Source of the DNA: a virus
Virus record (IMG/VR): IMGVR_UViG_3300020731_000012
Span: 1-64,000 of that record
DNA: 64,000 nucleotides
Reading direction: 5' to 3' (one strand)
Shown here: positions 1,739-48,430 of the stretch, in pieces
How positions within the stretch are numbered: the stretch's first letter is position 1
Layout: each line of letters opens with the position of its first letter
Notes under the pieces: model-generated
What the model was told of the DNA's origin: nothing
What the model saw: only the letters and a program-made list of their open reading frames with translations
Database searches by the model: none
Translations under genes and position numbers: made by a program

Positions 1739-2917
1739 ATGTCAGAACTACTAACAAGCCGTTGGTCGGAAACAAAAGAAGCACTTTTAGAAGGCCTACA
1801 AGGCACTAAAAAATCAGTTATGGGCGTGACTCTAGAAAATACTCGCAAGTATTTGGCAGAGACTGCTACAGCTGGTGCCACTTCTGCCGGCAACGTCGCA
1901 ACATTAAATCGCGTGATTCTTCCAGTAATCCGTCGCGTTATGCCAACCGTTATTGCTAACGAATTACTTGGCGTACAACCAATGACTGGTCCAGTTGGTC
2001 AGATCCACACATTACGTGTGCGTTATGCTGATACTTCAACTGGCGCTGGTGTAACAGCAGGTGAAGAGGCATTAAGCCCATTCAAGATTGCTCAGTCTTA
2101 CTCTGGTAACCAAGCTGGTGATGCATCAGCTAAGGCAGCTTCAACAGCTACTTTAGAAGGTCAAGCTGGTAACCGTTTAAGCATTCAAATCTTGAAGCAA
2201 ACAGTTGAAGCTAAGACACGTAAGTTATCAGCTCGCTGGACATTTGAAGCCGCTCAAGACGCTCAAGCTCAACAAGGTATCGACGTTGAAGCTGAGATCA
2301 TGGCTGCTTTGGCTCAAGAAATCACTGCTGAAATCGATCAAGAGATTATCCAATCTCTAATCACACTAGCTGGTACAGCTACATACACTTATGACCAAGC
2401 GTCTGTAAGTGGTACAGCTACATTCGTTGGTGATGAGCATGCTGCCTTGGCAGTTATGATCAATCGCGTAAGCAACTTGATCGCTCAACGTACACGTCGT
2501 GGTGCTGGTAACTATGCAGTGGTAAGCCCATTTGCATTGACCATCCTACAAAGTGCTACAACATCAGCATTTGCACGTACAACTGAAGGCACATTCGAAG
2601 CACCTACAAACACCAAGTTTGTTGGTACATTGAACAATGCAATGAAAGTTTATGTAAACAGCTATGCCGCTGATACAACTGATATTCTTATCGGTTACAA
2701 AGGCGCAAGCGAAAGTGATGCTCCTGCATTCTACTGCCCATACATCCCATTGATGTCAAGCGGTGTTGTATTGGATCCAAGCACATTCGAACCAGTAGTT
2801 AGCTTTATGACACGTTACGGATATGTTGAGTTGTCAAACACAGCATCATCTCTAGGTAACGCCGCTGACTATCTAGGTCGTGTTGCAATCACATCAGCTA
2901 ACGTTAAGTTCCAATAA
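1739..2917 (+). CDS. g23: Major capsid protein (T4 gp23-like)
   Basis: GVQPMTGPVGQI, VEAKTRKLSARWTFEAAQD, EITAEIDQEII, FYCPYIPL and F.P....MTRYG are gp23 signatures; SD AAGGAG; followed by a terminator. Confidence 0.97.
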   Translation: MSELLTSRWSETKEALLEGLQGTKKSVMGVTLENTRKYLAETATAGATSAGNVATLNRVILPVIRRVMPTVIANELLGVQPMTGPVGQIHTLRVRYADTSTGAGVTAGEEALSPFKIAQSYSGNQAGDASAKAASTATLEGQAGNRLSIQILKQTVEAKTRKLSARWTFEAAQDAQAQQGIDVEAEIMAALAQEITAEIDQEIIQSLITLAGTATYTYDQASVSGTATFVGDEHAALAVMINRVSNLIAQRTRRGAGNYAVVSPFALTILQSATTSAFARTTEGTFEAPTNTKFVGTLNNAMKVYVNSYAADTTDILIGYKGASESDAPAFYCPYIPLMSSGVVLDPSTFEPVVSFMTRYGYVELSNTASSLGNAADYLGRVAITSANVKFQ

Positions 2918-2944
2918 TCTTGTAACTTTTACTTTAGTAAAATT

Positions 2945-2973
2945 AAAAAGCACTCTTTGGAGTGCTTTTTTTT
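2945..2973 (+). terminator. Rho-independent terminator after MCP
   Basis: AAAAAGCACTC-TTTG-GAGTGCTTTTT followed by more T. Confidence 0.9.
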
Positions 2974-2976
2974 CGG

Positions 2977-2982
2977 TAAATA
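2977..2982 (+). promoter_or_regulatory. Late promoter TAAATA (leaderless-type)
   Basis: TAAATA directly after the terminator, 4 nt before ATG 2987; no SD. Confidence 0.7.
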
Positions 2983-2986
2983 TATG

Positions 2987-3502
2987 ATGACTACAACATC
3001 TTTTATTACTCCAGGTACTGTAACACAAGTCAGTGTAGACAACGGCATAGCCTGGACTTATCCTTTAGCAACTATAGGACGTGACGCAAGTGCCTATGCA
3101 GTTACAGCAAAACCGTTGCATACTATATCGGGCTTGTGGCAAGAACGTTTTGCTTCAATGACTAATCAATTATGGTTTACTAATTTTCCTTTTGCACCTA
3201 ACGGGTCAACACTAACTGGTATTGAAGTACAAATTAATGCTATCCGTGGCGCTCGAATACAAGATTACATTGTGCAATTAGTATTAGGTGGTAATAGAAT
3301 CGGTGATAATATAGCAGAACCGGATACTAGCAATTATAAAATTTATGGCAGTTCTTCTAATTTATGGAATAGTGGGGCTACATTATTAAACACAATAGAT
3401 CCTACATTTGGTGTTGTTATAGCATTACGAAGTAATGTGGTAATTCCGCATACTGACCTTGCATATATTGATAACATAGCCATGCGCATCACTTACAGCT
3501 AA
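2987..3502 (+). CDS. Hypothetical beta-rich virion-associated protein
   Basis: ORF after MCP. The track start at 2957 (TTG) lies inside the terminator, so ATG 2984/2987 is preferred. Confidence 0.7.
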   Translation: MTTTSFITPGTVTQVSVDNGIAWTYPLATIGRDASAYAVTAKPLHTISGLWQERFASMTNQLWFTNFPFAPNGSTLTGIEVQINAIRGARIQDYIVQLVLGGNRIGDNIAEPDTSNYKIYGSSSNLWNSGATLLNTIDPTFGVVIALRSNVVIPHTDLAYIDNIAMRITYS

Positions 3503-3505
3503 ATA
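3500..3505 (+). promoter_or_regulatory. Late promoter TAAATA
   Basis: Motif overlaps the upstream stop codon and opens an 80-nt structured leader. Confidence 0.7.
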
Positions 3506-3512
3506 CATTGTC

Positions 3513-3567
3513 AGCTTGCATCAGGCAAGTTTATGCGGAAACCCACCGCGTATCGACCTAGAACGTC
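3513..3567 (+). ncRNA. Putative structured cis-regulatory 5' leader (three hairpins)
   Basis: AGCTTGC/GCAAGTT (3513-3531), TATGCGG/CCGCGTA (3532-3552) and GAC/GTC (3555-3567) lie between promoter and SD. Confidence 0.45.
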
Positions 3568-3585
3568 AAATTAAGGAGAAACAAA

Positions 3586-5418
3586 ATGGGACGTCCATTA
3601 AGTAAAAAATATCTTGGTTATAGAAACCCAGGTGCCGATGGTAACTTTGGCGCCGCAAACACAGCAGGCGATGCAGATTTAGGTGGTCAGTCAGTAACTG
3701 GTTTAACAGTTGGTACAGCTGGTTCATACACTGGTACAGCCGCTCAAGCATTAACATTAACATATCCAACACCGGCTTTAAGCACAGAAGGCGCTGTTAC
3801 AGCTACTGGTGCTCCACTATTCAAATATTTGAGTGGTAGTACACTAACTGGCTCAGCAACTAAAGCCTATACAACTGGTGCTGGTTCAGTTGTAGCCGCA
3901 ATTGGTTCAACAACAATTACATTTACACCAACACTAACATCAGCTAGCGGTTCGTTAGCTATTAGTGCAACAACAAACAACAACGGTGCAATCACTATCG
4001 CAAGTGGTACATTTGTAGTTGGTCAAGACGTTGTTATTACAGGTACAGGCGGTCAAGGTATCAGTGCTGGTACATACTATGTTGGAGCAGTTGCAAGTTC
4101 AACAGCAATTACATTGTCCAGCTCATACGCCAACGCTATTGCTGGTGTGTTTATTACAACAACAACTGGTTCAATCACTGGTACTAACGCAGTAGTTGGT
4201 GCCGCATACAACTCAATTGTTAGCTTGGCATTAGTAAGCGGTGGTACAGGTATTACAGCCGCTAACATTGCTAGTATGATTGCTACACCATTAGCATTAA
4301 CTCAATCAACAAGTTCAGGTACTGGACAAACATTAACATCAACTGGTGGTAGTTCATTATTCGGCGTACAAAACGGTTCAGTAGTTAATGCTGGTGACGG
4401 TTACTTAAACTTGTCATTGACCCCAACCATTACTGCTACATCAGTAACAACAATTTCAACATACACAGCAAGTGGTTTAAGTGCCAATGCTTTAAACGTT
4501 CTTACAATGACTCCAGCTCAAGCAGCCGGTACATTCTATGTTGGACAAGCAGTTACATTTACTGGTACAGCAGGCGGCGCAGGTGCAATTACTGGTTACT
4601 CATCAGGTAACACATATATTGTTACTGCCACTGACGGTGCAAGCACAATTACTATTACTCAAGCTAACGGTCCTGTACCAGGAACAACAGCTGGTGCAAT
4701 TACCGGTCTATCATTAGTATTGTACACAACAACATTGTCAACAGTTGATGAAATTGTTGCTGGTATGATTGTTACTCCAGCTTCAACAGTTGGTGGTTTA
4801 ACTGGTTCAACAGCCTACTATGTAATCGGTACACCTAATCCAAACACTAATACAATATCATTGAGTACCGGTGCAGGTGGTAACTCAGTTGTTCAAACAA
4901 CAACTACAAGCCAATCAGTAGCAACTACAGTAACAAGCAACTTGATCGCAACATTCAGTTCAGGCAGTGCAGCCGCAACAGCTACATTGACTACAGCGGT
5001 TACCACTGGTTATCCAACAGCAGGTTCTGGTCGTTATTCAGCTATTCAAGCAACAGCTTATCTAGCCAACGGTTCTCGCGCTTGGGAACTTGCAGACATT
5101 ATCAGCCAAAAAGCTGGTCGTCGATTCAAAGTTGAAGCTGGTAGTGACGGTATTGGAGTTTGTACACTAGTTACAACAACTCCTTTGGCCGCTGGTCAAA
5201 TGTGGATTAACGCAACTGATTCCGCAGGCGGAACATACTATGTTGCTAAATTAACTGGACGTAAAGTTACTCTAGTGCCAGGCGGTGCAAACCCAGGTAC
5301 ACAGTTTACAGTAGCTGGATCAGCTGGTACAACAGTAGCACAGTGGAACTTGCCAACTACAACAGGTTTTGTTACTACAGCAGTAGCTAACGTTTCAGTT
5401 GTAATTGACAACGGTTAA
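3586..5418 (+). CDS. Thr/Gly/Ala-rich virion structural protein (fibre/decoration-like)
   Basis: 610 aa with SD AAGGAG; contains repeated 'VGQ.V..TG....G..Y.V.....ITLS' modules also seen in the giant fibres. Confidence 0.75.
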   Translation: MGRPLSKKYLGYRNPGADGNFGAANTAGDADLGGQSVTGLTVGTAGSYTGTAAQALTLTYPTPALSTEGAVTATGAPLFKYLSGSTLTGSATKAYTTGAGSVVAAIGSTTITFTPTLTSASGSLAISATTNNNGAITIASGTFVVGQDVVITGTGGQGISAGTYYVGAVASSTAITLSSSYANAIAGVFITTTTGSITGTNAVVGAAYNSIVSLALVSGGTGITAANIASMIATPLALTQSTSSGTGQTLTSTGGSSLFGVQNGSVVNAGDGYLNLSLTPTITATSVTTISTYTASGLSANALNVLTMTPAQAAGTFYVGQAVTFTGTAGGAGAITGYSSGNTYIVTATDGASTITITQANGPVPGTTAGAITGLSLVLYTTTLSTVDEIVAGMIVTPASTVGGLTGSTAYYVIGTPNPNTNTISLSTGAGGNSVVQTTTTSQSVATTVTSNLIATFSSGSAAATATLTTAVTTGYPTAGSGRYSAIQATAYLANGSRAWELADIISQKAGRRFKVEAGSDGIGVCTLVTTTPLAAGQMWINATDSAGGTYYVAKLTGRKVTLVPGGANPGTQFTVAGSAGTTVAQWNLPTTTGFVTTAVANVSVVIDNG

Positions 5419-40473: not shown

Positions 40474-41051
40474 TGACTAGAGAACCACTGTTTAGATCCG
40501 ATATTTTTATACAATCAGATGTAGGCAGTCTTACAGATCGCCAAGCACTTTTAAATCAAATACATACACTAGCGCAATCTAGCCCAACAATGGAATTTAG
40601 CAATCCAGGTTGCTTTAGAATGGACTTTCCTTTAAAAAATATAGGTTGGCTTTCATATGAAATTAGTGTATTATTGCTTGAAGCTGTGATATTCTATAAC
40701 AAGGAGGATCCTGTCTTTAGAGCAATTGAAAAAACACCTAATCCAAATTTAGTAGCTTGGGTCAATATAAACTCGCCAGGTAGTAGGAATACTATGCATA
40801 CCCATAAAGAAGATGATTTTTCCGGAGTATACTATCTACAAGCTACTGATTGCGGAGATCTAAGATTTCCTAATCCTGCGAATCTACTAGGAGATTGCGG
40901 CAAGACTAGCCCGTTTATGCGAGACTTTAGTTTTGCGCCCAAGGATGGTGATTTAGTTATATGGCCAAGTTGGATGGCACACGAAGTGGAACCTAACTTG
41001 TCTAACCGAGACAGAATAAATTTAGCATTTAATATTAGGATTAGAGCATGA
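40473..41051 (+). CDS. 2OG-Fe(II) oxygenase-like (TIGR02466/Oxy_5 type)
   Basis: WVNIN...MHTH..FSGVYYL...GDLVIWPSWMAHEV...RINLAFN. Confidence 0.85.
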   Translation: MTREPLFRSDIFIQSDVGSLTDRQALLNQIHTLAQSSPTMEFSNPGCFRMDFPLKNIGWLSYEISVLLLEAVIFYNKEDPVFRAIEKTPNPNLVAWVNINSPGSRNTMHTHKEDDFSGVYYLQATDCGDLRFPNPANLLGDCGKTSPFMRDFSFAPKDGDLVIWPSWMAHEVEPNLSNRDRINLAFNIRIRA

Positions 41052-41791
41052 GAAAAATAACATTTTTTACAACAATACCGGGAATGGAAGAAGCCTATCC
41101 TATTATAGAAGCTAAGGATTATAAGCCTGACTGGGTAGAAGGTGCTAGGAAGATGTACCTTAGAAAACTAGAACAATCACAAGGAAAACAATTTGTTGAT
41201 GTGTACCGCTGTCCCGGTATTTTTGATCTAATGAGCACAGGCTATATCGTACCAATGCCATGGGACGTTATGATAGAAACTAACGGGGATATGGAAAATT
41301 TCAAATGGACTATTCCTAGCGAGTCTCTAGCAGAAAAGTATGGCGGGCATCTAGTGTCAGGACACATGGCCAATGAAATTGCCGCTCCCTTTCCGCCTCG
41401 TCCGGGATGCTTGCGTAGCATTATTAAATTTAACACTCCGTGGCATATTATTGCACCTCCAGGTGTAAAATTTATGGCGATTCCAATTCCCTATGGAGAT
41501 GATTTTGCGTTTGAACATAACATGGGTATACTAGATCCAAGTTTAAGTACAGAAATAAATCCGCAGGTGTGGTGGAAAGTGCTAAATGATCGATTTTTGC
41601 TTAAAGCTGGCACACCTATTCTACAGTTAATACCAATGACTGATGAAAAATTTAAAATGGAAGTTGTAGTCGGCGACCAGAAAGCTCACAGTTGGTTAAA
41701 GCGTAGAGAATATTTCTTTAGTCTAAGTTTTAATTTCAAACGTAATCTCATGAAAGCCATGTATCTTAAACATTGGTTTGGGATAAAATGA
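41048..41791 (+). CDS. Conserved hypothetical protein (CPG...GY..P; AGTP..Q.IP beta-fold)
   Basis: RCPGIFDLMSTGYIVP, KFNTPWHI..PPG, GILD, KAGTPILQLIP; lacks the oxygenase HxD/H triad; ATGA coupling. Confidence 0.65.
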   Translation: MRKITFFTTIPGMEEAYPIIEAKDYKPDWVEGARKMYLRKLEQSQGKQFVDVYRCPGIFDLMSTGYIVPMPWDVMIETNGDMENFKWTIPSESLAEKYGGHLVSGHMANEIAAPFPPRPGCLRSIIKFNTPWHIIAPPGVKFMAIPIPYGDDFAFEHNMGILDPSLSTEINPQVWWKVLNDRFLLKAGTPILQLIPMTDEKFKMEVVVGDQKAHSWLKRREYFFSLSFNFKRNLMKAMYLKHWFGIK

Positions 41792-43912: not shown

Positions 43913-44492
43913 ATTTTTTAATCCCATACCCATAGCTCGAATACAAGTTGAGCAGGATATACTAGTTAAGGCCGATCAACTTAGTAGAGACTTGTTTACA
44001 CGTAGTTCTACTGTAGAAGATTATCCTGTAAACGATTATCTTACTATCCGAGGCGGTGAGCAACGTAGAGTATGGCCATGTGTTGAAGATAGGAATTGGT
44101 TAGTTAATTGGATTGAACAACAGGCTAGAGAATATCAATTAAGTGCAGGCATAGATGCTGAAGACCTAGTGCCTAAAATAGCCAACTGCTGGACTATTAC
44201 TCAACCAGAAAACAGTTATCAAGTAGCTCACACTCATCCTTACGGATCGATTTCTGGTAATTTATATTTAGAAGTTCCTGCATTTAATGACAATAGCGCC
44301 GAAACCGACGGCTGTATAAGTTTTTTATTTGATGCTACTTCAAATCCCAAAGCTTCGAGATTTGTACATGTAACACCTAGTGTAGGAACAATGTTGATAT
44401 TTCCAAGTTGGATACCGCATTTAGTGTATCCTTGGCAAGGCACAGGACAGCGTAGAGTTATTGCTTGGGATTGTCAGCTTTTACCCCAGTAA
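43893..44492 (+). CDS. 2OG-Fe(II) oxygenase-like (TIGR02466/Oxy_5 type)
   Basis: W......YQVAHTH...ISGNLYL...GTMLIFPSWIPHLVYP...RRVIAW. Confidence 0.83.
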   Translation: MSTIHCKFFNPIPIARIQVEQDILVKADQLSRDLFTRSSTVEDYPVNDYLTIRGGEQRRVWPCVEDRNWLVNWIEQQAREYQLSAGIDAEDLVPKIANCWTITQPENSYQVAHTHPYGSISGNLYLEVPAFNDNSAETDGCISFLFDATSNPKASRFVHVTPSVGTMLIFPSWIPHLVYPWQGTGQRRVIAWDCQLLPQ

Positions 44493-45007
44493 AATTTATC
44501 ACTTTCAAGTGTTCCTATAGCAGGTCTTCGATCATATTTCCACTCTGCATAAGATCCGTTAGCATCTACCCAGTGTAAAAATACTTGTGTGCATCCTGTA
44601 CCTTTGTATTCTTCACGCCAGTGAGTAAGTTCTATTCCAGGATATAATACAGCATCGCCTATTCCAAGCAATACCGGATCACGGTCTTGAAAACACAAGG
44701 GCCAACTTTCTCCTCCCACACATAAGCTCATGCTGTATTCGCAGGCGTTACGGTCGGTGTGCAGAGGCATCGTAGCACCTGTATAATATATTCTCGAATA
44801 ACTATAAGTTGGATATAATTCTTTTTGAACTATATTACTAATCTGCGGAGTTAATTTTACAAGTAACTGTTCAGTTTCTAATAACGCATAGGCGCTGAAA
44901 CTTTTTGGTACTAATCGATCTCCAATAGGGCGTTCTCTAGCTCTAATGCTCTTGTCCAATTCTGCACAATCACTTGGACTAATAAGATTTTTTAAAATTT
45001 TCATCAC
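44474..45007 (-). CDS. 2OG-Fe(II) oxygenase
   Basis: YSYSRIY..G..MPLHTDR..CEYS.SL...GDAVLYPG....HWRE...QVFLHWV; start GTG 45007 or ATG 45004. Confidence 0.83.
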   Translation of the reverse strand: MMKILKNLISPSDCAELDKSIRARERPIGDRLVPKSFSAYALLETEQLLVKLTPQISNIVQKELYPTYSYSRIYYTGATMPLHTDRNACEYSMSLCVGGESWPLCFQDRDPVLLGIGDAVLYPGIELTHWREEYKGTGCTQVFLHWVDANGSYAEWKYDRRPAIGTLESDKFYWGKS

Positions 45008-45610: not shown

Positions 45611-46195
45611 ATGCCTGTTGAATATTGGTTTCCTACTCCTGTTTTTGTACGCGATCTCGAAGGAGACGAACTTCAAACTGTACAAGCTGAAATTGAGCAG
45701 GTACTTCCGCAGATTAGATCCAGATCTACACCTGCTATAACCGGAGGTGCAATGCTGACTACCTTCTTTTGGGGTAACGGTAATGCGCACGACATTGCCA
45801 AATATAATCTAATAAATTTAAAACAGGCAATACGTCGAGCTGTGGATGACTATACAGTTGCTATAAATTATAAAGGTCCGCCTTTTCAGTTCGGGGGATC
45901 TTGGTTTAATCTCAGCAGTCGAGGAGGAACACATTTTGATCATGTACATCCTTACACTAGAATAGCAGGAACTTACTATTATCAAACTAATGAAACCGAT
46001 GGTAATTTAAAATTACAGAATCCCAATCCATTGATGCACATGGGTGCGTTTCCAGCAGATGAAAGTCCGCAAGAAAGTTTAAAATTTCCTCCTAAAGCTG
46101 GAAGATTAATACTGTTTCCCTGCTGGTTAACTCACAGGGTAGAAATGAATGAAACTGATCATGAGCGCATTAGTATAGCGTTTAATATAAACTAA
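45611..46195 (+). CDS. 2OG-Fe(II) oxygenase-like (tandem paralogue of 45033..45608)
   Basis: SWFN...HFDHVH..IAGTYYY...QNPNP...GRLILFPCWLTHRV..TDHERISIAFN. Confidence 0.87.
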   Translation: MPVEYWFPTPVFVRDLEGDELQTVQAEIEQVLPQIRSRSTPAITGGAMLTTFFWGNGNAHDIAKYNLINLKQAIRRAVDDYTVAINYKGPPFQFGGSWFNLSSRGGTHFDHVHPYTRIAGTYYYQTNETDGNLKLQNPNPLMHMGAFPADESPQESLKFPPKAGRLILFPCWLTHRVEMNETDHERISIAFNIN

Positions 46196-46701
46196 TGATT
46201 AAATTTATAGAAGATATTACTCTGCTAGAATTAACTGCTAGAAAGTATATGTTGTCTGGCATAGACAACAGTAAACTGGCTAAAGAAGTGCTACAACATA
46301 TAGACGTTAGAGTAAGCCAAGATCCCAATAGCGGTCTTAGCGAAGACAGTCTGTTTGAAATACCAGAAGGCAGTGAAGGATTAAAACTAGTAAATCTAGT
46401 AAATGAAATAGCCGCTGAAAAAGGACTGGTCAATACTAGTCAATGGGGGCAAATACATCGTCCATTAGAAAGTACTAACACTCATCATCATGGAGATAGT
46501 CCATTTGCTTGGACTTACTATGTTCAAATACCCCCAGGTGCAGGCGCATTGACATTTTGGTTTTTAGATAGGTTTAGGCACTCAATCGCACCAGAAGAAG
46601 GATCACTCATAATCTTTCCAGGATGGATGAATCATTCGGTAAGTAAAAATAGAGGCACTGGCACACGAATCAGTGTTGCTGGAAATTTGGAGAAAAAATA
46701 G
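46195..46701 (+). CDS. 2OG-Fe(II) oxygenase-like (HxH type)
   Basis: WGQIH...STNTHHH...WTYYV...GSLIIFPGWMNHSV..N....RISVAGN. Confidence 0.82.
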   Translation: MIKFIEDITLLELTARKYMLSGIDNSKLAKEVLQHIDVRVSQDPNSGLSEDSLFEIPEGSEGLKLVNLVNEIAAEKGLVNTSQWGQIHRPLESTNTHHHGDSPFAWTYYVQIPPGAGALTFWFLDRFRHSIAPEEGSLIIFPGWMNHSVSKNRGTGTRISVAGNLEKK

Positions 46702-47756
46702 TGGAAATTTTTAATTATTTAGATGACGAGATTTATCTTTTTGTCTTAATATCGATCATGGTAGTTAGCGGTATAGCTAAAGAACAAAATCTATTTGCCG
46801 GTACCTATGGATTTTTAAAAAGTAAATTTAAGAGTAACAGATTAGTTATCATGTTGCTGAGTTTCGTATCGGGTATACTGCCAATTGAAGGTCGTGCTAC
46901 AGTGTCAGCAGGTATATTAGATACGGCGACTGGCGTGAACGGTGATAATGCCAGCCGCAAAAAATTAGGTATTATCGATTTCTTAACCACTCATCATTTT
47001 TACATGTGGAGTCCGATTGAAAAACCCGTACTGCTACCTATGGCGGCTTTTGGTATTGGATATGCCGCATGGTTAGGCATGCTGGCGCCATTGATTGCTG
47101 TCAGCTTCCTGTTTATTGTACTGTACTGTTGGTTAGCGGTAGATGAGAACGAAGTAGTGATTGCAGAATGTCCAGAGTCTACAGGATTCTTAGACTTTGC
47201 AAAAAATACACTGCCATTCTTGGCAGCCATTGTGGCCTATATGCTGATGGGCGGCGAAGGTCCCGAAGCAGTATTTCCAGTATTTGGTGCATTACTAGTA
47301 TATTATATACTAATCACTCGATCGTTTGATATTAAAAAGTTAAACAGTTATATTAATTGGACTACAGTGGCTATCGTTGCTGTAGTATTTGCGAGCTCGG
47401 GATATATGCAAGAGCATCGCGCTTGGATTGAAGAAGCTGTTAAGAGCATAGGATTAGATATGCACACATTTAAAGGTGTGTTCTTTATCAGTTTACTAAC
47501 ATTCTTAGCCAGTTTCTCAATGGGCAGTGACGGCAAATTTGCCGCACTGACTGTGCTAATGACAAGTGCCTTTGGTAGGGAATACCTACTTTGGTTCTTT
47601 GCATTAGACTATTGTGGTTACTTGCTGACCCCAATGCACGAATGTGTAATGATTGGTAAGCGTTATTTTGGAACAACTCTTACTACTTACTACACAGCAC
47701 TAATCGGATGGGCTTTATTGCTCGTTTCGGTTGCAGGAGTTTTTACATTCCTGTAA
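46701..47756 (+). CDS. Polytopic inner-membrane protein, DUF401-like (ion-transporter superfamily-like)
   Basis: About 9-10 hydrophobic segments; GILPIEGRATVSAG, HHFYMWSP and LLTPMHECVMIGKRYF recall DUF401 motifs (GLLP.PGGA..SAP; SP.H.CL..T.EYF); GTG start coupled to TAG. Confidence 0.65.
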   Translation: MEIFNYLDDEIYLFVLISIMVVSGIAKEQNLFAGTYGFLKSKFKSNRLVIMLLSFVSGILPIEGRATVSAGILDTATGVNGDNASRKKLGIIDFLTTHHFYMWSPIEKPVLLPMAAFGIGYAAWLGMLAPLIAVSFLFIVLYCWLAVDENEVVIAECPESTGFLDFAKNTLPFLAAIVAYMLMGGEGPEAVFPVFGALLVYYILITRSFDIKKLNSYINWTTVAIVAVVFASSGYMQEHRAWIEEAVKSIGLDMHTFKGVFFISLLTFLASFSMGSDGKFAALTVLMTSAFGREYLLWFFALDYCGYLLTPMHECVMIGKRYFGTTLTTYYTALIGWALLLVSVAGVFTFL

Positions 47757-47792
47757 AATGACAGAGTTACACTTAATTAAGGAGATTTATAA

Positions 47793-48386
47793 GTGAATAA
47801 GATGTTAACATTAATTTTTGCCGCATTATTGAGCGGTACAGCACTAGCTGAAACAGGTATCAGCACTGAGTTTGAACGTGAGCGTGGCACACAAGCCCCA
47901 AACACAATGACAAACACAATCAAGATTGCACCATATGTCAAGTTTGACAACGGTGTTAAAGCCGACATTCAAGTAGGTGCTAGCCGTGATGATGGTTCTG
48001 TTAGCGGTAATAAAAACCCAATTGAGAATACAGCAGAAGCTCGTGTTCAAAAATTGTATGAAGTTTACCCAGGCTTGCACCTAGGTGGACGTTTGGGTCT
48101 AGGTGAAGTATTCAACGGTGTTAATTCTGCTGGTAACACAGTAGACTTTGGCTACTACACAGTAGAACCAAAAGCTGAATACTTTATCACTGACAAATTG
48201 TCTGCGTTAGCTAGTTGGAGATTCCGTGATTCATTTGCAGATAACAACAACTATCTAACACGCACTTGGAAAGCTGGTTTCGGTTATGACGTTACTAAGA
48301 AAGACTTAGTTGAAGTCAAGTACTTCCAAAACCGCGGTGACGAAAAGACTAATGGTGTTGCTCTAGAGTACACACGCGGTTTCTAA
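47793..48386 (+). CDS. Outer-membrane beta-barrel (porin-like) protein
   Basis: Sec signal MNKMLTLIFAALLSGTALA, alternating amphipathic beta strands, C-terminal BAM signal LEYTRGF; SD AAGGAG. Confidence 0.75.
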   Translation: MNKMLTLIFAALLSGTALAETGISTEFERERGTQAPNTMTNTIKIAPYVKFDNGVKADIQVGASRDDGSVSGNKNPIENTAEARVQKLYEVYPGLHLGGRLGLGEVFNGVNSAGNTVDFGYYTVEPKAEYFITDKLSALASWRFRDSFADNNNYLTRTWKAGFGYDVTKKDLVEVKYFQNRGDEKTNGVALEYTRGF

Positions 48387-48403
48387 TCTAATTAGAACCC
48401 AAT

Positions 48404-48430
48404 AAAAAAGGACCTTCGGGTCCTTTTTTT
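48404..48430. terminator. Bidirectional rho-independent terminator
   Basis: AAAAAAGGACC-TTCG-GGTCCTTTTTTT between convergent genes. Confidence 0.92.

Follow-up and report, generated by a model that had tools for sequence, protein, structure and literature searches.

A DUF401-like carrier and a ten-stranded outer-membrane barrel encoded side by side in aquatic phages: a candidate two-membrane solute transport module

Introduction

Operons in which the gene for an outer-membrane channel accompanies that for an inner-membrane carrier are found in cellular genomes (NanC-NanT, KdgM-Tog, ScrY-ScrA, Tsx-Nup, and OprP-Pst), and channels of the NanC-NanT type have 12-18 strands and established substrates. 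Phages also encode outer-membrane proteins, such as the lambda protein Lom (of the Ail family) and the Lc/NmpC porins, which are not paired with a carrier gene, and their nutrient-acquisition auxiliary genes are mostly those of periplasmic binding proteins or enzymes. Here we describe a pair of adjacent genes, for a DUF401-like inner-membrane carrier and a secreted outer-membrane beta-barrel, in 64,000 nucleotides of viral DNA (IMG/VR record IMGVR_UViG_3300020731_000012, positions 1 to 64,000; hereafter the window) from an uncultured aquatic T4-like phage. The initial annotation of this DNA had proposed that a transporter and a porin form an uptake path, possibly serving the neighboring enzymes. 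On balance, and with modest confidence, we regard the two proteins as a phage-encoded two-membrane solute transport module in which the barrel is an optional accessory.

DUF401/COG1906 is a family of predicted multi-helix transporters related to GntP and DctM and without substrate assignment, and the archaeal members of canonical COG1906 (arCOG04354) are restricted to thermophiles (PMC5898192). Our literature searches on DUF401, COG1906, phage porins and transporters, and pelagimyophages found no description of the pair. Phage outer-membrane barrels, transport-related auxiliary genes of phages, and cellular channel-carrier operons are all known kinds; what is new is a conserved phage module built from two uncharacterized, virus-dominated families.

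A Virus-Dominated Clade of DUF401-Like Carriers

The carrier gene (46701-47756, + strand) encodes 351 residues. Its product passes the gathering threshold of Pfam DUF401 (PF04165; 36.1 bits against a cut-off of 24, E 6.2e-9), in agreement with the initial annotation, although the match covers only positions 60-380 of the 393 in the model and is not full-length. The score against the TIGR00529 equivalog is 38.8 bits, for a cut-off of 378.4. This partial coverage and the far sub-threshold TIGR00529 score mark a distinct, shorter subfamily. The protein resembles DUF401/COG1906/TIGR00529 (the AF0261 family) as a multi-helix predicted transporter scoring above the Pfam cut-off, but differs in being shorter than canonical members by about 40 residues at the N-terminus, in its partial model match, and in belonging to a clade dominated by viruses. 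It falls in phrog_14035 (function unknown; E 1e-72), and its homologs in the protein database are likewise tagged PF04165.

A profile search of 1.84 billion representatives returned 514 carrier clusters, and among the best 150 matches nearly all full-length members have 300-370 residues. About 520 IMG/VR viral contigs encode the carrier, and look-alike clusters in the Atlas are 79-100% viral; the clusters of ten distant homologs hold only unnamed metagenomic proteins. The phage carriers are therefore a virus-dominated clade of their own. In a scan of 185,579 species genomes with two peptide patterns only, which distant cellular relatives could escape, a single carrier relative was found, on a phage-like contig in a Chitinophagales metagenome-assembled genome. 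This 21-kb contig (L021; CAZXGO010000034.1, 53% GC) carries DUF401-like, NUDIX, gp15, and baseplate-like genes in the order of the window. Mis-binning of a phage contig is the most likely explanation; among 201 genomes of the same phylum, PF04165 gave only weak partial matches to longer proteins (frames of 450-482 residues).

All structural statements on the carrier and the barrel rest on predicted models. The AlphaFold model of the carrier (pLDDT 79, pTM 0.82) shows two hairpins (residues 46-59/62-76 and 257-274/282-291) and helix breaks at residues 102-107 and 310-313. With Foldseek the top TM value was that to VcINDY (0.70), and VIA aligned ~327-342 residues at Z 20-23 with NaS1, AtDiT2.1, VcINDY, NaCT, ArsB, Pho90, and SiaQM of the tripartite ATP-independent periplasmic (TRAP) transporters; MtrF/YdaH is, like ArsB, also among the structural matches. 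With two re-entrant hairpins and two broken helices, the protein is predicted to be an elevator carrier of the ion transporter (IT) superfamily, the fold that the initial annotation had anticipated, and its estimate of about ten transmembrane helices was roughly right. The model superposes on the divalent anion/sodium symporters (DASS/SLC13: VcINDY, NaS1, NaCT, NaDC3, AtDiT), ArsB, Pho90, TRAP DctM/SiaQM, and AbgT, but sequence identity to these is 7-13%, and a profile search against solved structures gave zero sequence-level matches. Relative to VcINDY the carrier aligns from about residue 85 of the former, the first scaffold helices being missing. An hhalign comparison of its N-terminal and C-terminal halves was weak (probability 23%); it aligned YLWSPxEK with YLLSPxHKC, that is, the two Ser-Pro breaks.

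A family signature was derived from 61 diverse homologs, 20-72% identical to the window protein. It comprises G58-x-L-P61-[IV]-x-G-R65 in the first hairpin, Y94-...-H98-H99-Y-Y-L-W-S104-P105-x-E107 at the first break, G275-S-S-x-[KR]279 in the second hairpin, and Y307-L-L-S-P311-x-H313-K-C315 at the second break; W103, S276, and S310 are also listed. The His/Cys-containing motifs noticed at the outset, HHFY (98-101) and PMHEC (311-315), lie within it, and H98, H99, H313, and C315 are each retained in at least 90% of the 61 homologs. In the model the signature residues map to the tips of the two hairpins and to the two helix breaks, positions that form the substrate site in solved IT carriers such as VcINDY. 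The predicted substrate site of the phage carrier would then be built from these tips and breaks, with an invariant R65, K/R279, three His, and one Cys. The Ser-Asn-Thr motifs of DASS were not found at the hairpin tips of the 61 homologs, which have LPI(P/E)GR and GSSxK/R instead, so the carrier is not a DASS member.

The loop that follows the first hairpin (window 46926-46961, residues ~76-87) is hypervariable among homologs. In scattered lineages (15 of 33 close homologs and 12 of 61 distant ones) the loop after residue 75 contains CC, CxC, or CxxH clusters, and no such Cys/His cluster is present in that loop of the window protein. We treat this recurrent Cys/His-rich loop as a lead from the alignments and not as evidence.

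A Ten-Stranded Barrel for the Outer Membrane

The second gene (47793-48386, + strand) encodes 197 residues beginning with a signal peptide (residues 1-19, cleavage site ALA|E) and ending in RGF, and the terminal F197 is invariant among homologs. The AlphaFold model (pLDDT 88, pTM 0.79) consists of a signal helix (residues 2-13) and 10 strands, and the score against Pfam OMP_b-brl (PF13505) is 27.8 bits, just below the 28.7 cut-off. With a Sec signal, a predicted barrel, and a C-terminal aromatic residue, the protein has the features of an outer-membrane beta-barrel, as had been surmised from its signal peptide and final Phe. Hundreds of conserved metagenomic homologs of each protein show that both are real genes and not chance open reading frames (ORFs).

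The best VIA matches are the Legionella Dot/Icm 'porin I' 9nh1 (Z 17.3), the designed TMB10 (15.4), OpcA (15.0), and pOmpT (14.1), whereas the 12-stranded KdgM and NanC rank lower (Z ~12). The word 'porin' used in the initial annotation is therefore too strong, and a classical trimeric porin of 16-18 strands was ruled out by the 10 strands, the mature length of ~178 residues, and the lack of a porin-family Pfam match. OpcA, OmpT/Pla, and 9nh1 share the 10 strands (Z 14-17, with 173-178 residues aligned), but identity is 8-16%, and the loops of the phage barrel are much shorter (~178 residues in the mature protein against 250-300). Since the family has no invariant His, an omptin-like Asp/His catalytic set is lacking, and an outer-membrane enzyme of the PagP, PagL, or OmpT kind was dropped as a candidate. 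Like Lom and Lc/NmpC, the barrel is a phage gene product for the host outer membrane, but it matched neither Ail_Lom nor a porin family of Pfam at the thresholds used.

When residues were assigned to the lumen or the lipid by strand alternation, the predicted lumen-facing set included 14 acidic, 10 basic, and 11 Gly residues. An alignment of 163 homologs (A1) has a mean column identity of 78%. Conservation is 0.85 for lumen-facing, 0.79 for lipid-facing, and 0.78 for loop residues, and the loops are short. The most conserved class of residues is thus predicted to line a charged, Gly-rich lumen.

Resembling barrels occur in uncultured Caudovirales phages (TM ~0.8, 26-30% identity), and homologs were also found on contigs of 375 kb, 296 kb, and 193 kb. 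A tblastn search of the isolate phage collection gave no match to the barrel, and scanning the viral contigs with the single sequence returned nothing; matches needed the family alignment. For the barrel, the two-pattern scan of the 185,579 species genomes returned no relative in a cellular genome.

Linkage of the Barrel to the Carrier

The search of viral contigs with the family alignment yielded 16 barrel loci, in all of which the carrier gene lies directly upstream. The metagenome scan added 17 barrel loci, and the carrier is directly upstream in 12 of the 13 that have enough upstream sequence. Together, the barrel directly follows a DUF401-like gene in 28 of 29 viral or metagenomic loci; the collection scans used few peptide patterns, the locus counts are not phylogenetically independent, and some loci may be one contig present in both the viral and the metagenome collections. 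The pairing is real in one direction, in that the barrel almost never occurs without the carrier. The single barrel locus without a carrier is L112, where the barrel (2779-5139 for the locus segment) is followed by a rubrerythrin (PF02915), then by a solute-binding protein of the DctP family of TRAP systems without an evident signal peptide; the next ORF, of 460 residues, has no Pfam match.

In the opposite direction the relationship is looser. Of the 78 unique carrier loci sampled that have a + strand ORF downstream, the family profile recognizes a barrel in 32. Five others (L029, L037, L038, L039, and L041) have a very distant homolog in the slot (hhalign 96.6%, tested on L029), and L076 has an unrelated Gcw_chp/TorF putative porin instead of the family barrel. 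Divergent PF13505-like barrels stand in the slot in L028, L031, L032, L045, L068, L073, L079, L081, L091, and L095. For comparison, only ~5 of 590 other ORFs of 150-320 residues in the same loci combine a signal peptide with an aromatic C-terminus. The remaining carrier loci have Dps, HSP20, tail-fiber-like, or unidentified genes downstream. The Dps/ferritin-like gene of L075 (1215-1652; PF00210, E 8e-23) lies directly downstream of the carrier in place of the barrel; L067 and L086 have Dps in the same position, assigned by similar N-termini, the Pfam check having been made on L075 only. HSP20 genes occupy the barrel position in L062, L063, L072, and L083 (checked with Pfam on L062).

Several observations weigh against a dedicated pair. 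The barrel is missing from about half of the sampled carrier loci, close relatives with the same site among them, and is therefore dispensable. At the site equivalent to window positions 47756-48429 the barrel is absent from L022 (whose carrier is 90% identical), L065, L093, and L021; in these the carrier is immediately followed by the convergent NUDIX gene and gp15, and L022 and L065 are close relatives. Because such relatives run from the carrier straight into NUDIX and gp15, the barrel is best described as a presence/absence polymorphism at one site. Solitary carriers are also found in the Synechococcus phages S-H25, metaG-MbCM1, S-CAM4, and ACG-2014j and in the Ralstonia jumbo phages RP12 and RP31. 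Pairwise identities of carrier and barrel are correlated across loci (Mantel r 0.44, p 0.001), but the deep split of the carrier into two clades (~87% versus 49% identity to the window protein) is not mirrored in the barrel, and this speaks against a tight physical co-adaptation of the two proteins. Adjacency in phage genomes is, moreover, weaker evidence of shared function than it is in bacterial operons; both families are functionally uncharacterized and virus-dominated; and the lumen of a 10-stranded barrel is narrow, the solved OpcA and OmpT being an adhesin and a protease and not channels.

These observations might be taken to mean that the two genes are chance neighbors with separate functions, the carrier being an auxiliary metabolic gene that relies on host porins and the barrel altering the host surface for superinfection exclusion, receptor masking, or as a decoy, in the manner of lambda Lom. 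The frequency of carriers without a barrel, the gain and loss of the barrel at one site among close relatives, the many stand-alone outer-membrane barrels of phages, and the unmirrored clade split would all fit. We nevertheless judge it unlikely, since the barrel is hardly ever seen away from a carrier (it follows one in 28 of 29 loci) and unrelated barrels recur in the same slot. The loops, besides being short, vary no more than the remainder of the protein, the lumen-facing residues are the most conserved, and a mean identity of 78% is unlike that of a surface protein in an arms race; superinfection exclusion, which the initial annotation had offered as its alternative, is weakened by the short loops and the conserved lumen.

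A transport module with an optional barrel accommodates both sets of observations. It is argued for by the tight spacing and co-orientation of the genes, each with its own ribosome-binding site, and the single hairpin after the pair; by the different and even unrelated barrels that occupy the slot; by the predicted IT-carrier and outer-membrane-barrel folds; by the linkage and its persistence in two genomic settings; and by the charged, conserved lumen in the model together with the correlated identities. Conserved adjacency and co-orientation, as expected of a specific outer-membrane channel and its cognate carrier, are observed. In our reading the barrel serves the carrier as an exchangeable accessory and not as a fixed partner. 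The expectation that the two genes would not occur independently of each other was borne out for the barrel and failed for the carrier. In NanC-NanT-type operons, too, the barrel adjoins the carrier in conserved order and is dispensable, although the phage pair differs in its 10-strand barrel, its uncharacterized partners, and its carriage by phages. By analogy, a dispensable barrel would be compatible with an accessory that helps at low substrate concentration.

Genomic Settings and the Oxygenase Island

In the window the two genes are adjacent and co-oriented on the + strand, as originally described. The carrier starts at a GTG that shares one base with the TAG stop of the upstream 2-oxoglutarate (2OG) oxygenase gene (TAGTG); this overlap, with a GGAG ribosome-binding site (46689-46692) nine bases 5' of the GTG, spans 46689-46703 on the + strand. 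The upstream gene is the last 2OG-Fe(II) oxygenase of an island (46195-46701, + strand; PF13759, E 6.5e-14), and to judge from the overlap it is translationally coupled to the carrier gene. The barrel starts at a GTG 36 nt past the carrier stop, with AGGAG at 47780-47784 ahead of it (the whole element at 47780-47795, + strand). These starts give N-termini (MEIF for the carrier and MNKM for the barrel) that agree with those of homologs (MEIL and MKKI/MNKM, respectively). Between the barrel gene and the convergent NUDIX gene lies a hairpin, GGACC-TTCG-GGTCC, with an A run on one side and a T run on the other (48404-48430, no strand assigned), which is terminator-like on both strands. It was not among the elements listed by a consensus scan, and we suspect that the A and T runs can extend the stem and thereby remove the T tail that the scan requires.

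To the right of the pair are a T4 gp15-type tail sheath stabilizer (PF16724, E 2e-26) and virion proteins. The phage itself is absent from the isolate collection, and the best matches of this gp15, at 29-35% identity, are from the jumbo phages Sinorhizobium Phosso, Agrobacterium Atu_ph07, and Salicola SCTP-2. The gp15-like and virion genes around the pair identify the window as phage DNA, and the view that the pair is phage-encoded holds. To the left are eight small 2OG-Fe(II) oxygenases, supported by Pfam and encoded on the + strand, together with two tryptophan-halogenase homologs and a methyltransferase, and the pair terminates this co-oriented tailoring block.

The position of the pair at the end of the block invites the idea of an export route, in which the pair would secrete a small product or by-product of the halogenases, oxygenases, and methyltransferase or remove a toxic ion. 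ArsB-type and AbgT-type members of the IT superfamily are exporters, and ArsB and MtrF/YdaH are among the structural matches noted above. In addition, an oxygenase is directly adjacent in 18 of 87 loci, 14 of the 33 with a barrel as compared with 4 of the 54 without, counts that are uncorrected for relatedness. We consider export improbable, more so than separate functions. L016 keeps the pair, in the order methyltransferase, carrier, barrel, and NUDIX, with the entire oxygenase/halogenase island missing; L008, L014, L019, and L020 have no adjacent oxygenase or halogenase; carrier homologs of cyanophages and Ralstonia phages stand in unrelated contexts; and no scaffold-building enzyme is evident in the window. 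Across the 87 loci an oxygenase homolog lies within the flanks of 47 and is absent from those of 40. The link between the pair and the oxygenases is loose; the tie proposed in the initial annotation describes the window, where the pair closes the block, and does not extend to a dependence of the pair on the oxygenases. As the pair persists without the tailoring island, uptake seems likelier than export, and we return to a transport module that would act in import.

The order of the pair is kept in two settings, one on the NUDIX/gp15 side and the other on the side of an exonuclease or epimerase and HSP70. In the latter, seen in L008, L013, and L118, genes for HSP70 and HSP20 accompany the pair, along with those for CsgG, a bilin reductase, a FecR-domain protein, and an exonuclease or epimerase. 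A full HSP70/DnaK lies near the pair in L008 (11656-19656) and ClpX in L013 (9436-18330), and both loci have a ferredoxin-dependent bilin reductase, CsgG, and a FecR-domain protein nearby. Their CsgG cluster is reminiscent of curli genes that have been reported from pelagimyophages (PMC7029224).

Elsewhere in the window, two adjoining giant ORFs of 2722 and 4184 residues (11319-32068) lie upstream of the island. Two island ORFs, at 41048-41791 (247 residues) and 44474-45007 on the - strand (177 residues), have no Pfam match at E 0.01 but are conserved, with counterparts of 50-73% identity in the related loci L006 and L007. In the whole window (1-64000) the T4 late-promoter octamer TATAAATA occurs 0 times, compared with 7.4 expected from shuffles.

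Proposed Role and Candidate Substrates

As the pair recurs in many related phages, it probably moves a small solute across both host membranes. In the proposed mechanism, the DUF401-like protein would work in the host inner membrane as a secondary carrier of the elevator type. The barrel would be exported by Sec and inserted into the outer membrane, where it may serve as an optional dedicated conduit, narrow and charged, for the small charged substrate of the carrier; the carrier would then take the solute through the inner membrane in elevator fashion. The likeliest direction would be uptake during infection.

An anion or a (di)carboxylate is suggested as the substrate by the basic residues of the hairpin tips (R65 and K/R279), and from the modeled site we would guess at an organic acid, a metal-carboxylate complex, or some small anion. 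The His/His/His/Cys set, the recurrent though non-conserved Cys/His loop, and the proximity of Fe(II)/2OG oxygenases, Dps, and rubrerythrin hint at iron or a metal-carboxylate complex. Fe(II), 2-oxoglutarate, and halide, which had been put forward for the neighboring enzymes, are likewise guesses. In a bolder version, which we put forward tentatively and think rather doubtful, the virus-dominated carrier clade and its own miniature 10-stranded outer-membrane channels would constitute a self-contained two-membrane import pathway that large aquatic phages install for a limiting solute. The conserved Arg/Lys and His/His/His/Cys residues of the predicted site, together with the neighboring Fe(II)/2OG oxygenases, Dps, and rubrerythrin, would weakly favor iron in complex with a carboxylate, a dicarboxylate (2-oxoglutarate, for instance), or some other small anion as that solute.

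An inner-membrane gene beside an outer-membrane gene also superficially recalls spanin or holin cassettes, and in S-CAM4 an endolysin gene lies ~1.6 kb upstream of the carrier homolog. It might be supposed, then, that the pair manipulates the envelope, dissipating gradients or permeabilizing membranes to time lysis or shut off the host, and does not transport nutrients. This we hold to be very improbable, because the carrier is predicted to fold as a full IT protein and its putative substrate site is highly conserved; it is neither a small holin nor a single-pass i-spanin, and no lysis genes lie next to the pair in the window. The barrel contains zero Cys and therefore no lipobox. A spanin pair was ruled out on the same grounds, the barrel being devoid of Cys and the upstream protein being a multi-helix carrier. 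A Pfam search of the neighbors of the Ralstonia-phage and S-CAM4 carrier homologs gave no matches.

The initial annotation is partly supported, by the predicted folds, the phage origin, and above all the pairing; its parts that concern oxygenase dependence and the porin class are not supported as stated. The natural presence and absence of the barrel and its replacement by unrelated barrels offer a clear experimental design. The carrier clade is widespread, as judged from its ~520 IMG/VR contigs and 514 protein clusters, in a family without a known substrate. Practical value would be modest until the substrate is found. If the proposal is true, DUF401 would gain its first functional handle and phage auxiliary functions a new kind, and phages would be seen to be capable of reconstituting an entire route of uptake through the envelope of Gram-negative hosts.

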